The notes below the pieces were generated by a model. It was given only the letters and a program-made list of their open reading frames with translations. It had not been told where the DNA came from and searched no databases. Both the position numbers and the translations under genes were made by a program. Source: an uncultured Acidobacteriota bacterium (GTDB lineage Bacteria > Acidobacteriota > Vicinamibacteria > Vicinamibacterales > CAVVIG01). Taken from it: a DNA stretch of 64,000 nt. The stretch is taken from contig CAVRVW010000008.1 of NCBI GenBank assembly GCA_963724695.1, forward strand, positions 237,290 to 301,289, given 5' to 3'. Of the stretch, positions 1,866-51,666 are shown one piece after another. The stretch's first letter is position 1; each line of letters starts with the position of its first letter.

Positions 1866-3155
1866 ATGACCAACCACACCAACCCACAACACGCCGACGA
1901 GACCGGCGATCCCCGCCGGCTGCGCCTGCACCTGGGAGAGGAACCGCATGCCGGGGCCCGCATCAAGGTCATTGGTGTGGGCGGGGGCGGCAGCAATGCC
2001 GTCAACCGCATGGTCCGCACGGGGCTCGACGGCGTCGAGTTCATCGTCGCGAACACCGACCGCCAGGCGCTGCAGGGCAACGCGGCGCCCATCAAGGTGC
2101 AGATCGGGTCGAAGCTGACCAAGGGGCTCGGCGCCGGCGCCGACCCGAACGTGGGCCGTTCGGCGGCGCTCGAGGACACCGACCAGCTCATTCAGGCGCT
2201 CGACGGCGCCGACATGATCTTCGTGACGACGGGCCTGGGGGGCGGCACGGGCACAGGCGCGGCGCCGGTCATCGCGAGCCTCGCGAGCGAGCTCGGCGCC
2301 CTGACCGTGGCTGTGGTCACCAAGCCGTTCCGCTTCGAAGGCCGCAAGCGACAGGTGCAGGCCGAGCGCGGGCTCGAGCAGCTGCGCGACTGCGTGGACA
2401 CGATCATCACGATCCCGAACGAGCGCCTGCTGACGATCATCGATCGGTCGACGCCCCTCACCGACGCGTTCTCGACCGCCGACGATGTGCTCCGCCAGGC
2501 AATCCAGGGGATCTCCGACTTGATTATCGTGCCCGGGCTCATCAACCTCGATTTCGCGGACGTCAAGACGATCATGTCCGGCATGGGGTTCGCGATGATG
2601 GGCACCGGCGTGGCCGAGGGCCCGGACCGCGCGATCGAGGCGGCGCGCCGCGCGATCTCGAGCCCGCTTCTGGAGGGCGCGTCGGTCAACGGCGCCAGGG
2701 GGGTGATCATCAACGTCACCGGAGGGCCGGACCTGTCGCTGGTCGAGGTGAGCGACGCCTCGACCATCGTGCAGGAAGCCGCGGACGAAGATGCCAACAT
2801 CATCTTCGGCGCGGTCGTCGACCCGACGCTCACTGGCAGGGTCAAGGTGTCGGTCATCGCGACCGGCTTCGGCCCGCCGGCGTCGATGCGGTCGATGGTC
2901 ACGGTGGCGCAGACCCCCGTCGACATGACATCGTACGCCGGCCACTCGCGCCCGCGACAGGATCCCGAGCCCCCGTTGTCGGTGGCGGTCGGCCGGATGA
3001 CGATTGGGCGGCGTCCGCACCTCGAGCTGCCGGTCGTGCCCAGCGGATTGAACGAGCCTGCTGAGGCGGTCGGCGCCCCCGGCCCAGATGCAGCGGATCC
3101 TGATGCCGGCACTCCCTACGACGTGCCGGCCTTCCTGAGACGGCAGGAGAGCTGA
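1866..3155 (+). CDS. ftsZ: Cell division GTPase FtsZ
   Basis: 429-aa ORF with [17 protein letters not shown] and the tubulin signature [13 protein letters not shown]. Conserved C-terminal peptide DVPAFLRRQ. Confidence 0.97.
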
Positions 3156-8131: not shown

Positions 8132-8207
8132 TGGTGGGCCCACCAGGATTCGAACCTGGAACAGACCGGTTATGAGCCGGCGGCTCTGACCGTTGAGCTA
8201 TGGGCCC
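8132..8207 (-). tRNA. tRNA-Met (anticodon CAT; elongator type or possibly tRNA-Ile2), CCA encoded
   Basis: The reverse complement folds as a cloverleaf: GGGCCCA-TA-GCTC-AACGGTC-AGAGC-C-GCCGG-CTCATAA-CCGGT-CTGTT-CCAGG-TTCGAAT-CCTGG-TGGGCCC-ACCA. The G1-C72 pair argues against an initiator tRNA. Confidence 0.9.
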
Positions 8208-32925: not shown

Positions 32926-32937
32926 GTAGTATTCCCC

Positions 32938-34723
<1,786 letters not shown>

Positions 34724-47444: not shown

Positions 47445-48304
47445 TCAGCTCGCGGGGCCGCGGCGCCCATGAACCGGAGCGCGCGAGCGACGGCGGTCTT
47501 CATCTCGCGCCGGTCGACCACCAGGTCCAGCATGCCCTTTTCGAGGAGGAACTCGGATCGCTGGAACCCTTCGGGCAGCGTCTGCCTGATGGTCTGCTCG
47601 ATGACGCGCGGGCCGGCGAACCCGATGAGCGCCTTCGGCTCCGCGATGTTCAGGTCGCCGAGCATGGCGAAGCTCGCCGTCACCCCTCCGGTCGTCGGAT
47701 CGGTCAGGATCGAGATATACGGCAGCCGCGCACGGTCGAGGCGGGCCAGCGCGCCGCAGATCTTCGCCATCTGCATGAGCGACAGCGCCCCTTCCATCAT
47801 CCGGGCGCCTCCCGACGAGCAGACGATGACGATCGGCTGCTTCTCGTCGATCGCCCGCTCGATGGCCCTCGTGATCTTCTCGCCGACGACCACGCCCATG
47901 CTCCCGCCAATGAAGCCGTACTCCATGGCCGCGACGATGGTCGGCAGCCCGTCGATGGTTCCCGACGCCGTGACGACGGCGTCTTTCAGGCCCGTGGCGT
48001 CGATTCCCGCCTTCAGGCGCGGCCTTGTAGGGCTTGGTGTCGGTGAACTCGAGCGGGTCGGTCGAGACGAGGTCGGAATCGTGCTCGGTCCAGTCGCCGT
48101 CGAAGAGCATGCTGCAGGCGTTCGGTCGCGGTCATCCGGAAGTGATGGGTGCACTTCGGGCAGACGTTCAGATTGGTCGTCGAGATCCTTGTTGTAGATG
48201 CCCTGCGCGCAGCCCGGACACTTGACCCACAGGCCTTCCGGCACCCGGCTGGCCTTGCCCTTCGCCTGGGCAATGGGCTTGCGCGTCTTCTTGAACCACG
48301 CCAT
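47441..48304 (-). pseudogene. accD: Acetyl-CoA carboxylase carboxyltransferase beta subunit AccD, three compensating +1 frame breaks in the zinc-ribbon/N-terminal region as assembled
   Basis: MAWFKK...[15 protein letters not shown] and everything from [10 protein letters not shown] onward ([29 protein letters not shown]) are in one frame. The conserved [20 protein letters not shown] appears only in the 48273 frame. [29 protein letters not shown] appears only in the 48110 frame. Breaks lie near 48169-48181, 48105-48117 and 48011-48026. Confidence 0.9.
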
Positions 48305-48322
48305 CACGGGGGAGCTTAGCAC

Positions 48323-48981
48323 TTACCTCGTGCGTGGCACGTAGTACCGCGTGCCGGCGCCCATCGCGCCGATCTGCTTGATCAGATCGTCGAGCGCCTC
48401 GTCGCTCGCCGTCGAGTCGAACTCCGACGTTTCGACGACCAGAAGGGGCGTCGCCGTCGTAGTGAAAGAAGAAGTGGTGGTAGGCCTCGTTGAGCTCTCG
48501 CAGGTACTCGGGGTCGGGCTCGAGGTGTGCGGCGTCGGGTGCATCCTCCAGGATGCGTTCGCGCCGCAGGCGCAACCGGCGCAGGAGCACGTCGGTGGGC
48601 GCCTGGAGGTACAGCACGAGATCCGGCGGCGGCACGTCCTTGGAAAGCAGATCGAAGAGCCGCTGGTAGATGAAGAGCTCGTTGTCGTCGAGATTCAGAT
48701 ACGCGAAGATCTTGTCTTTGTCGAAGACGTAGTCGCAGACCATGGTCTGGCTGAACAGGTCGGCCTGGCGCAGCGTGGTCTGCTGACGATGGCGGTTGAG
48801 CAGATAGAACAGCTGCGCCTGCAACGCCGCGCCGGGCCGGTCGGCGTAGAAGTCGGCGAGAAACGGATTCTCCTGTTCCTCGAGCACGATGCGTGGCGTC
48901 GAGTCGTGTGCCCAGCCGTTCGGCGAGCGCCGTCTTGCCCGCGCCGATCGGTCCTTCGACCGCGATGTAGCGGAAGTGCAC
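48323..48981 (-). pseudogene. Deoxynucleoside kinase family protein, two +1 frame breaks as assembled
   Basis: P-loop segment (M)HFRYIAVEGPIGAGKTALAERLG is in the 48981 frame. The core IVLEEQENPFLADFYAD...VCDYVFDKDKIFA...LYLQAPTDVLLRRL is in a second frame. The tail LLVVETSEFDSTASDEALDDLIKQI is in the 48544 frame. Breaks lie near 48888-48900 and 48445-48461. Confidence 0.85.
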
Positions 48982-49007
48982 GCGGGCCCGATGATATCAT
49001 CGCGAAC

Positions 49008-51187
49008 GTGACGCGTAAGAGCTTCGCGCCGCCGCTGGCACTGGCGGCTGCGCTCTTGTCGGCGTGTGCGAAACCGCCGGTCGTCGTGCCCGTGGAACCG
49101 GCCGGGCCGTCCTTCGAGCAGAAGATGTCGTGGATCGTGCGGCTCGAAGACGAGCGCTCGCTTCGCGATCCCGCGCCGCCCCCGCCGGCCGACCCCGTGC
49201 CCGCACCGGCGCCGGTCAAGCGCGACGGCGGGCGCCCCGTCGTCGCTGCCCCGCCTCCACCTCCGCCTCCGCCTCCCGATCTCACGCGACTCTCGACCGA
49301 TGCCGAGGCACGCGTTCGCCGGCGCGCCGCGCTGGCGATCGGCCGCGTCGGCCTGGCCGACGGCGTTGACGCCGCTCGTGGCGCTGCTCGCCGACGAGGA
49401 TCCGGAAGTCCGGCAGATGGCCGCCTTCGCGCTCGGCCTCATCGGCGACGCGCGTGCGGCGGATGCGCTGGCAGCGCTTCTCGCCGACCCCTCGCCTCTC
49501 GTCAAGGGCAGCGCCGCAGAGGCGCTGGGGCTCATCGGCGCCACCGGACACGCCAACGCCATCGGCGAGATGGCAGCAGCCATCGTGCAGTCCTCCGCGC
49601 TCGAGCCTCCCCCGTCAGAGGAGGATGACGCGCGGCGCGATACACCGGCAGCCGCATTCCGGCTGGCGATGACCTCGCTCGTGCGGCTGCAAGCGTACGA
49701 ACCGCTGGCCTCCGCGGTGCTCGACAGTGCCGGCAGGCCGCGCGTGCGCTGGTGGCCCGTGGCGTTCGCGCTGCAGCGACTGGAGGACCCGCGCGCAGTG
49801 CCCGCTCTTCTGGCGTTGTCGCAGGAGGCCCATCCATATACGCGCGCCTTTGCGGCCAAGGGGCTCGGCGCGATGGGCAGCGCCAGGAACCCTGAGGTCG
49901 TCCCGACGTTGCTGGCCCTGCTCGAGGGGGGCGATCGATCGGTGGCGATCGAAGCCGCACGATCGCTCGCGCGGCTGGGCGACGCGGTCGGCCGTCCCAC
50001 CGCTCGTCCGCCTGATCCACACGGGCACGACCGATCCGCAGCTGCGTCTCGAAGCGGTCGCCGCCCTTGGCGCGCTGCGCGGCGAGGGCGCCTTCGAGGC
50101 GCTGTTGGACGTGCTCGCTGACCCGCAGCCTCCGGTCCGCGCGGCCGCGCTGCGCGGCCTGGCTGCCGTGGATCGCGAAGGGTTCGTGACCGTGCTCGCC
50201 GGCCTGGACCCGGATCCACACTGGAGCGTCCGTGCGGCGACGGCCGAAGTGCTGGGCCGCTTGCCGCTCGAGAACGCGCTGCCGAGGCTTCAAGGCATGC
50301 TCGAGGACACCGATCAGCGCGTCATTCCCGCCGTCGTGCGAGCGCTCGTCGCGCTCAAGGCGGACGAGGCCGCCAAGATTGCCCTCGAGCGGCTGACGGC
50401 CGAGGACGTGGTCGTCCGCGCGGCGTCGGCCGAGGCTGTCGGCGCGCTCAAGCCGGCGAACGGGGCATCCGCCCTGAGCGATGCGTATCGGCTCGGCCTG
50501 CGGGATCAGACGTATGTGGCACGGGCCGCTGCCCTGGCCGCGCTGGCGCGCTACGGCGCCTCGACACCGATGGTGACCGACGTGTTGACCGAGGCGCTGG
50601 CGGACCGCGACTGGGCCGTTCGCGTTCGGGCCGCAGCACTGCTTCGCGAGCTCGACCCCGCCCTCGACGTGAACGCCCGCATTCGTCCTGCGCCGTTGCG
50701 GCAGCCGCGCGAGTTCTACGAGTCGTCCGCCGTGCTCACGCCGCCGGTGTCCACGCAGGCGTACATCGAGACGGACCGCGGGCTGATTCACATCGAGATG
50801 GCCATGCTCGACGCCCCGCTGACCGTGGACAACTTCATTCGTCTGGCGCGCGCCGGGTTCTTCGACGGCGTCACATTCCACCGCGTCGTGCCGGACTTCG
50901 TGGCGCAGGCCGGCGATCCACGCGGCGATGGCGAGGGGGGCCCCGGCTACACCATCCGCGACGAAATCAACCAGCGGCCCTACCTGCGAGGCACGATCGG
51001 GATGGCGCTCGACTGGGAAGACACGGGAGGCAGCCAGTTCTTCATCACGCACTCGCCGCAGCCGCACCTCGATACCCGGTATACGGTCCTGGGGCGCGTG
51101 CTCTCCGGGATGGAGGTCGTGGACCAGCTTCAGCCGTGGGATGTGATTCGGAGGGTGCGGGTCTGGGATGGGACGACGCTGCGTTGA
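49008..51187 (+). pseudogene. Lipoprotein with Pro-rich linker, HEAT-repeat region and C-terminal cyclophilin-type peptidyl-prolyl isomerase; two +1 frame breaks as assembled
   Basis: GTG 49008 with lipobox LLSAC. HEAT-like units (DPEVRQMAAFALGLIGD, SPLVKGSAAEALGLIG, DWAVRVRAAALL...) are spread over the three forward frames 48351/49066/49727. The C-terminus FHRVVPDFVAQAGDP...GSQFFIT is a cyclophilin. Breaks lie near 49358-49366 and 49984-49993. Confidence 0.85.
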
Positions 51188-51210
51188 AAAACGCTGCGCC
51201 GAAAATTGAA

Positions 51211-51240
51211 GAGGGGGCGACGGCCGCCCCCTCTTTTTCT
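51211..51240. terminator. Rho-independent terminator hairpin, usable from both strands
   Basis: GAGGGGGCG-acggc-CGCCCCCTC followed by TTTTTCTT on the plus strand (after the PPIase gene). On the minus strand the same hairpin follows the micro-ORF stop and is followed by TTCAATTTTC. Confidence 0.7.
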
Positions 51241-51256
51241 TGCGGGCGAGGTCGGC

Positions 51257-51307
51257 TTAGCGCTTCTTGCCGGCCTTCTTCTTCCCGCCCTTGGCTTTCT
51301 TCGCCAT
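51257..51307 (-). CDS. Candidate 16-codon polybasic micro-ORF (MAKKAKGGKKKAGKKR)
   Basis: ATG 51307 is preceded by AAGGGGGGGA (complementary to the anti-SD with one G-U) 9-12 nt upstream. TAA at 51257-51259 is followed by the terminator hairpin. Too short for the ORF track. Coding status unproven. Confidence 0.35.
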   Translation of the reverse strand: MAKKAKGGKKKAGKKR

Positions 51308-51535
51308 TGTCTGTTATCCCCCCCTTCAGTTGGGATGTCTTGCGAGAGCGCTCACGACATCGATCCTGTGGCTGCCGCCTGGCACGCGCACTCGACATCG
51401 GCGCCCTGCGCACCGAGGCACCACTCGCTGCTCTATGGTCCTGGGTCTCAGCAGCGAGAGGGTGAGTTGGAAGGCTTTCGGCCTTTCTTCCTCACAAGGA
51501 GTGGCCTGAGTTGACCACCCTCATACCAGATGTAG

Positions 51536-51563
51536 ATTATGGTTGAGAAAATCTTGATGTCAA
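51536..51563 (-). promoter_or_regulatory. Putative sigma-70 promoter (minus strand) driving the 51.2-51.5 kb small transcript
   Basis: Minus strand: TTGACA (51563-51558), 16-nt spacer, CATAAT (51541-51536), in the most AT-rich stretch of the window. Confidence 0.45.
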
Positions 51564-51666
51564 GCACAAAAGCGATGATTTTGTCAAAATTTTCTCGGCG
51601 CTGCACGAAGGATGCGGGCCGCGCGTCGCGGACTCTCGCACGATCCGCAGCCGCGCAGGAAATCGA

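Follow-up and report, generated by a model that had tools for sequence, protein, structure and literature searches.

We examined a 64,000-nt stretch of contig CAVRVW010000008.1 (hereafter the window; positions 237,290 to 301,289 of the forward strand) from the assembly of an uncultured Acidobacteriota bacterium of the order Vicinamibacterales (GCA_963724695.1), and in it the 479-nt gap between a HEAT-repeat/cyclophilin gene and tgt. The gap is taken up by one complete minus-strand transcription unit, in which a promoter is followed by a multi-helix leader of ~225 nt, an open reading frame (ORF) of 16 codons encoding the lysine-rich peptide MAKKAKGGKKKAGKKR, and a terminator hairpin. An initial annotation, made by eye, had described a stand-alone promoter-to-terminator unit here, and our comparison with related loci supports a self-contained micro-gene of this kind. 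Its features are as follows (window coordinates; SD, Shine-Dalgarno sequence; UTR, untranslated region):

51667, plus strand: start of tgt
51595-51575, minus strand: A/T-rich upstream element, with a second TTGACA at 51587-51582
51563-51536, minus strand: sigma-70-type promoter, TTGACA (51563-51558), 16-nt spacer and CATAAT (51541-51536), an 11/12 match
51535-51490, minus strand: conserved 5' block, CUACAUCUGGUAUGAG plus hairpin P1
51520-51514 with 51505-51499, minus strand: hairpin P1, loop AACUCAGG, 94% of alignment cells paired
51495-51489 with 51468-51462, minus strand: helix P2, compensatory changes in 4/7 pairs
51461-51453 with 51429-51421, minus strand: helix P3, compensatory changes in 8/9 pairs
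51386-51368, minus strand: middle block (C)GUGCCAGGCGGCAGCCAC, invariant in 51/51 leaders, missing from minimal forms
51336-51316, minus strand: translation initiation region, AUCCC (51336-51332) plus extended SD GAAGGGGGGGAU (51327-51316)
51307-51257, minus strand: micro-gene MAKKAKGGKKKAGKKR, ATG to TAA, 16 codons plus TAA
51276-51269 (codons 11-13) with 51256-51249, minus strand: ORF/3'UTR hairpin, AGGCCGGC with GCCGACCU, stop codon in the loop
51256-51243, minus strand: conserved 3' UTR element GCCGACCUCGCCCG
51202-51240, both strands: bidirectional intrinsic terminator (A-tract, stem, U-rich tail), common to the convergent cyclophilin gene
51233-51225 with 51219-51211: terminator stem GAGGGGGCG/CGCCCCCUC (hairpin 51233-51211)
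51187, plus strand: end of the cyclophilin gene, convergent with the micro-gene

The TTGACA-16-CATAAT promoter lies where the initial annotation had placed it, and only 18 promoters scoring 11/12 or better occur in the whole 4.76-Mb assembly, one of which precedes an HU-like gene. A promoter scan of the region found three promoter-like sites where 0.1 would be expected. The promoter is kept throughout Vicinamibacterales, the spacer TTTTCTCA(A/T)CC is likewise conserved, and a TTTTGAC...TTTGTGC stretch 5' of the -35 element is kept in relatives, so that the A/T-rich stretch at 51575-51595 is a candidate UP-like element. We infer that transcription starts near 51533-51529. The unit is far beyond what chance would provide, because its DNA is kept in almost all close relatives examined (39/41, see below), because there are so few promoters of this quality in the genome, and because of the extreme Lys content of its ORF. 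Beyond the terminator the minus strand carries only the antisense of the cyclophilin gene, which agrees with the observation made at the outset that no longer gene follows. A regulon with a common promoter was considered and rejected, since the promoter motif occurs once in the genome and the promoter and spacer motifs together are unique there; the 16S promoter has only GTGNTTGACA in common with that of the micro-gene. The spacer TCTCA(A/T)CC (within 51536-51563) and the early transcribed GGTATGAG (51522-51529) form an imperfect inverted repeat, in most relatives CTCATCC ... GTATGAG, that spans the -10 element and the start site. The repeat could be an operator and would then account for the conservation of the spacer; the few variants of this repeat show no compensating change.

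The peptide has 16 residues, half of them lysine, and a net charge of about +10, and its ORF is one of the two most Lys-rich small ORFs of its own assembly (50% Lys, tied with an 8-codon ORF). An identical peptide is encoded in 99 species-representative genomes, collected with a search pattern that did not constrain the last codon or the stop. In this set codon 16 is CGG (62), CGC (21), CGT (15) or CGA (1) and thus always Arg, the stop codon is TAA or TAG, and codons 2 and 15 vary synonymously only. Among ~240 distinct loci examined the ORF has at least 15 different lengths between 13 and 54 residues, always in frame and always running from an SD-preceded ATG-GCN-AAR-AAR to AAR-AAR-(CGN/AAG/AGA)-stop, that is MAKK...KK(R/K)-stop. 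These ORFs encode at least 45 distinct peptides built almost only from K, A, G, T and R (K 49% and A 29% in 45 of them, then G, R and T, with acidic and aromatic residues absent). At locus L411 (loci are numbered with the prefix L) two copies of the gene, behind the same promoter and 5' block, are both expanded, to 54 and 49 residues, by KKKA(A/T) repeats (MAKKKAAKKKAAKKKATKKK...); the second of these copies holds a single Glu. Two tandem copies are usual in the order. Of 103 two-copy loci, 55 encode the same peptide twice with synonymous differences at 3-9 codons, and all near-identical paralogue pairs together show 390 synonymous against 15 non-synonymous codon differences. Site-wise counting over all 16-codon ORFs is confounded by indel-shifted sequences, and the identical-peptide set and the paralogue pairs were used instead. 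Changes therefore fall on synonymous sites, indels come in multiples of three, and start, SD and stop are conserved. Because synonymous variation, frame conservation and the paralogue comparison are three independent lines, they argue that selection acts on the peptide, and the 16-codon polybasic ORF that had been proposed at 51307-51257 is almost certainly a real, translated gene. Four longer ORFs overlap the gap on the two strands; they gave no Pfam match, and given also that leader length does not vary by multiples of three they were dismissed as GC-driven artefacts.

The unit, 366 nt long, was found in 39 of 41 relatives. When the promoter and the first ~50 nt were searched alone in 301 Acidobacteriota genomes, only Vicinamibacterales matched (20 genomes). 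A pattern made from the ends of the ORF (ATGGCNAARAAR...AARAARMGNTRR) returned real micro-ORFs only in this order and only at this locus; neither of its two matches outside the order is a Lys-rich ORF, and no such ORF was found elsewhere in the genome itself or in other Acidobacteriota. The exact ORF is also present on more than 120 soil-type metagenome contigs, all of at least 1 kb. One Vicinamibacterales family with closed genomes is without the gene, and there a convergent ddl directly abuts the cyclophilin gene. Complete genomes in which the micro-gene was seen are all metagenome-assembled, none of the carriers recognised is cultured, and the family lacking it may be the one in culture. 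On one metagenome contig of 4 kb (Ga0137411_1334429; L184) two exact copies of the ORF lie ~2 kb apart in opposite orientation (3013-3056 on the plus and 988-1031 on the minus strand), either an assembly artefact or an inverted duplication. Five loci (L065, L078, L083, L088 and L108) come from metagenome-assembled genomes labelled Acidimicrobiia, Betaproteobacteria, Terriglobia, Bifidobacterium and Bifidobacteriaceae, which are most likely mis-binned or mislabelled records.

The 5' block alone recovered 13 further genomes, all of which carry two micro-ORFs behind the promoter, and 104 of 113 further loci were two-copy; sister lineages thus have the same promoter ahead of two tandem copies. In these relatives AGGAGG, the first ORF and its terminator come ~97-120 nt after the -10 element, and beyond that terminator lie the middle block and the second ORF with its G-rich SD, this second copy being without an evident promoter of its own. 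A member of the family to which the genome of the window belongs keeps both copies (G005/L021). Because the two-copy relatives place the elements of unit 1 and unit 2 in that order, the leader in the window is evidently a composite of the unit 1 5' block, hairpins at the site of the former ORF 1 and the unit 2 leader, and by the same comparison the locus is a derived form, with one copy, of the two-copy arrangement that most Vicinamibacterales have. Among the genomes with the identical peptide, 82 to 257 nt separate the -10 element from the ATG; in the shortest leaders P1 leads almost straight to the SD and only the first ~55 nt are kept. The initial annotation had offered a discrete small RNA gene of ~220 nt as one possibility, and both this range and the second micro-ORF and terminator that fill the space in most relatives argue against it. 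The leader is best read as cis-acting and of mixed evolutionary origin.

That the RNA upstream of the ORF is structured is borne out by a predicted fold of the transcript that none of 100 shuffles equalled (z = -3.6), and by covariation in P2 and P3. In a set of 51 distinct single-copy leaders, the proposed helices pair in 91% of cells compared with 36-50% in slid controls. The 5' block is 80-93% identical across the order; P1 within it varies on one side only in this set, and compensatory stems were seen by eye in other families (L026, L028, L032). P3 changes, for example, from CUUCCGC/GCGGAAG to CUUCUGC/GCAGAAG. Two of the helices picked out beforehand belong to this architecture, CGCUGCU/AGCAGCG as an extension of P3 in this genome and AAGGC-CGAAA-GCCUU as the tip of P2, which is genome-specific and variable in length. 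A third, GAGGGUG/CACCCUC, can pair in 91% of cells across the 51 relatives, compensatory changes being absent; it is mutually exclusive with P1, P2 and P3, and alternative leader folds are possible. The CGUGCCA of the middle block (51386-51380) is complementary to UGGUAUG (51528-51522) in the 5' block, and the RNAalifold consensus pairs these two invariant non-coding blocks, making a closing helix, P0, a candidate; the chance of a random match is estimated at ~10%. Taken together, the covarying helices define at least one new cis-acting RNA element that is without an Rfam family. Two further candidates in the leader were discarded. The middle block contains TGGCAC and lacks the -12 element of an opposite-strand sigma-54 promoter, and a pairing of the 5' end with the spacer between SD and AUG had a double change in L038 that no other sequence repeats.

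The strong SD-like sequence noticed at first sight is the extended GAAGGGGGGGAU at 51327-51316, the G-run of which is invariant. Its AAGGGGGGGAU forms an 11-nt match with the 16S 3' end ...GGAUCACCUCCUUUCU, with one wobble and one mismatch. Judged by its promoter, this 11-nt match and its own terminator, the unit looks like one of the best-expressed of the genome. The AUCCC just upstream could form a helix with the 3' part of the SD; in predicted folds 3.3 of the 7 SD G residues on average pair with its conserved CCC. The initial annotation had also suggested a riboswitch-like leader controlling a Lys-rich peptide; of this the coding sequence has proved real, and the riboswitch, which has no Rfam match, is only a possibility.

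Codons 3-14 are nearly invariant even at synonymous sites in the 99 species (AAA at codon 4 in 97/99, GCC at codon 5 in 98/99, GGC at codon 7 in 99/99 and GGG at codon 8 in 97/99), over a range of genomes in which the leader diverges beyond alignment. Part of this constraint may come from the ORF/3'UTR hairpin, which would leave the unpaired codons 3-6 unexplained. The hairpin pairs in 86% of cells, with compensatory changes in L037, L022 and L120, and we have moderate confidence that it is real; an outer helix, GGGCG/CGCCC, was rejected because 41 of 88 sequences cannot form its central pair. An invariance of nucleotides beyond what the peptide needs, which extends to the rarer codons AAA and GGG, would also be expected if the RNA were the main product, either a trans-acting or a dual-function small RNA (sRNA) in which the purine-rich ORF served as a seed or protein platform and translation was secondary. 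Such a product would fit a unit that has the size of an sRNA, runs from promoter to terminator and contains covarying helices, and it would fit the mutual complementarity of the two invariant non-coding blocks. We nevertheless consider it improbable in view of the overwhelming selection at the peptide level, with paralogues that keep the peptide and change 3-9 codons, and of the dispensability of most of the leader in lineages with the same peptide. In addition, the RNA has no Rfam match, and genes for Hfq, ProQ and CsrA were not detected in the 85%-complete assembly (tblastn with the E. coli proteins, nothing at E below 1e-3).

The terminator hairpin was confirmed at 51233-51211, with 98% of cells paired and G-C to C-G swaps in eight sequences. 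The U-tract that follows it is interrupted in this genome (UCUUCAAUUUU), which is why a simple terminator scan missed the hairpin, and canonical in relatives (GGGGGCGGCCGUCGCCCCCUUUU). On the plus strand the same hairpin is followed by TCTTTTTCTT and therefore also serves the cyclophilin gene.

Where the leader precedes two copies, the P1 loop GCUC can base-pair with a GAGC ~12 nt before the first SD, and this pair covaries to ACUC/GAGU in three lineages (L140, L141, L151 versus L022, L025, L031, L032, L142), pointing to what is probably a P1-loop pseudoknot next to the first ribosome-binding site. In four two-copy loci (L021, L022, L025, L031) CCUCGGUUCCGGU, 5' of the first SD, could pair with ACCGGUUCCGGGGG, which follows directly on the first stop codon and shares bases with the 5' arm of the first terminator (GGGGGUG...CACCCCC). 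Read by eye, this arrangement has an antiterminator/terminator topology in which the loop holds the ORF, and translation of the first copy may decide whether read-through reaches the second. Such control of copy 2, which is conceivable in the two-copy relatives, together with a Lys-codon-rich ORF whose stop codon lies near a terminator, might be taken for a regulatory leader peptide, the translation of which would sense lysyl-tRNA or ribosome availability in cis while the peptide itself was irrelevant. For the window an attenuator is unlikely because all that follows the terminator on that strand is cyclophilin antisense sequence; the non-Lys positions, both termini and the paralogue peptides are conserved, which an attenuator would not need, and the neighbouring genes are unrelated to lysine metabolism. 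We give this explanation very little weight.

Searches of the databases gave no known family for either the RNA or the peptide. Rfam returned no match over the region at the gathering threshold, in line with the initial failure to recognize RNase P, SRP, tmRNA, 6S or common riboswitch cores by eye; the best sub-threshold matches, at permissive E-values, concerned the terminator hairpin only, and ARAGORN found no tRNA or tmRNA in the region. Searches of Pfam, NCBIfam and PDB with family members of 20-36 residues were without a match, as was an exact look-up of nine peptide variants among 15 billion proteins, and the literature search turned up no description of the gene.

By size and charge the closest known proteins are, as an analogy, the actinobacterial bL37 and bS22, along with the bS22 relatives eL41 and mS38 and with Thx (bTHX) of Thermus. 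bL37 has 24 residues and a pI of 12.0 and bS22 has 33 residues and a pI of 12.75, and both are lineage-restricted, individually dispensable and were missed by annotation for decades (PMC5876184, PMC10081302). The main rival to the interpretation that we favour below builds on this likeness, in that the peptide would be a stoichiometric, lineage-specific ribosomal micro-protein sitting in a pocket of the rRNA (cf. bL37, bS22, bTHX and eL41) and the leader an autoregulatory mimic of its rRNA site. The micro-gene product is likewise tiny, highly basic and unannotated, and it is confined to one order. A ribosomal role would fit with the exact conservation of the peptide in 99 species, with a promoter and an SD that are both very strong, and with a leader whose length and structure recall those of ribosomal-protein operons; homologues of bTHX, bS22 and bL37 are missing from the genome. 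Six family members (20-36 residues) gave no match to PF08213 (bS22/DUF1713) in Pfam searches at E values up to 10, tblastn with M. smegmatis bS22 against the genome hit spurious Arg-rich frames only, and the 24-residue actinobacterial bL37 and the 26-residue Thx of Thermus gave only Arg-rich alternative frames elsewhere (E 0.01-0.2). As represented by its longer family members, the peptide thus has no detectable sequence relationship to the ribosomal proteins named or to entries of Pfam, NCBIfam and PDB, and it is made of Lys, Ala and Gly, without their Arg, His and hydrophobic residues and hence without Arg-rich or hydrophobic anchors. Unlike theirs, its length is elastic (13-54 residues through repeat expansion), which is not expected of an occupant of a defined pocket; it is often encoded in two differently led copies and has been lost from one family of the order. 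Nor is there an obvious vacancy on the ribosome. bS21, bL36, bL35, bL33, bL28, bL31 and probably bL32 are present in the genome, and replacement of a lost small ribosomal protein was rejected, as all of the usual ones tested except bL34 are there. The literature search turned up no acidobacterial ribosome structure. A ribosomal micro-protein is therefore rather doubtful to us, and the link to ribosome-associated polybasic proteins is an analogy.

We judge it a little more likely than not that the micro-gene encodes a translated, probably abundant polycation that binds nucleic acids and whose structured leader tunes its translation. The strong, order-wide sigma-70-type promoter would give an mRNA of ~330 nt, in which a small hairpin would partly cover the ribosome-binding site and the unusually long, G-rich SD would then drive translation of MAKKAKGGKKKAGKKR; the leader would tune this step, possibly through feedback or ionic conditions, and the hairpin common with the cyclophilin gene would terminate the transcript. 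The product would be an abundant, unstructured polycation binding polyanions, i.e. nucleic acids, and by its composition stand nearer to a histone-H1 tail or a genetically encoded polyamine than to a snugly fitting ribosomal protein. A general polyanion binder is favoured because of the Lys/Ala/Gly composition without Arg-rich or hydrophobic anchors, because of the elastic length with its KKKA(A/T) repeat expansion, and because the gene occurs in one or two copies, is lost in one family and finds no vacant ribosomal slot.

The extreme positive charge could also suit a role outside nucleic acids, as a counter-ion of polyphosphate or another acidic polymer or as an exported cationic peptide, and nothing else specific speaks for one; the peptide has no signal peptide and no amphipathic or hydrophobic face, the locus has no adjacent transporter, immunity or modification genes, and the genes conserved next to it (cyclophilin, tgt or ddl) have housekeeping roles, all of which makes such a role most improbable.

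Several observations weigh against a translationally tuned, nucleic-acid-binding polycation. Thermodynamic folding predicts only a partial occlusion of the SD, the candidate helix P0 is without covariation (both of its blocks being invariant), and the ORF/3'UTR hairpin has little. The 16-mer is 100% identical in 99 species of its own clade, which is tighter than a non-specific counter-ion predicts, and part of this identity may reflect RNA-level constraint instead.

Lysine/alanine-rich, H1-like proteins or tails are known from other bacteria, among them Hc1 and Hc2 of Chlamydia, AlgP of Pseudomonas and the C-terminal PAKKA repeats of mycobacterial Hlp. The polycation proposed here shares with them a low-complexity K/A(/T/G) composition, repeat units (AKKA and KKKA(A/T)) that expand and contract, as in the 54- and 49-residue copies of L411, and a presumed electrostatic binding of polyanions. 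Theirs, however, are tens to hundreds of residues long and usually carried on a folded domain, whereas the micro-gene encodes a free 16-mer that always begins MAKK and ends KKR, under its own strong promoter and behind a long leader; homology cannot be assessed for sequences of such low complexity. For the RNA, the comparison is with the leaders of autoregulated operons, including those of ribosomal proteins, and with the dual-function RNAs SgrS/SgrT and RNAIII/hld. The likeness lies in a long, covarying multi-helix leader before a short coding region, in nucleotide constraint inside the ORF and in the promoter-to-terminator layout, and the difference in a leader that has no Rfam match and is mostly dispensable in some lineages.

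The order Vicinamibacterales (subdivision 6 of the Acidobacteria) ranks among the most common bacteria of soil, and the gene is missing from every annotation and protein database checked, its ORF being far shorter than the cut-offs of gene callers. If its product is a polycation of the nucleoid or the ribosome, a component is missing from models of DNA organisation or ribosome stabilisation in these slow-growing soil organisms. The locus also offers a natural experiment for the study of small proteins, with identical paralogues under different leaders, single-copy and minimal-leader forms, and a family without the gene. More tentatively, oligolysine polycations might form a broad, undescribed class of 'polyamines' made as protein from dedicated micro-genes in many uncultured bacterial and archaeal lineages; the two differently regulated copies of Vicinamibacterales could then have leaders that sense the polycation, Mg2+ or ribosome status, and the copy kept in the window could carry an RNA code inside its ORF, its transcript being both mRNA and structured RNA. 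We hold this wider proposal to be possible, on balance doubtful.

Some further observations concern the rest of the assembly and of the window. The assembly contains two clearly different 16S rRNA genes (contig C3, ~1023050-1024600, plus strand; contig C11, ~339640-341170, minus strand), of which one reads TACGTAGGGCGCAAGCGTTATCCGG and the other TACGGGGGGGGCAAGCGTTGTTCGG after the 515 site and whose upstream regions are unrelated; one of the two contigs may come from another organism (a bin chimera), despite the stated contamination of 0.5%. The HEAT-repeat/cyclophilin ORF is called from 49727, and a long ORF antisense to it (48168-50219), which has a dNK domain match, overlaps it. Elsewhere in the window, Rfam gave gathering-level matches to a TPP riboswitch (32937-33032, plus strand, 67.6 bits) and a tRNA (8135-8207, minus strand, 68.3 bits).

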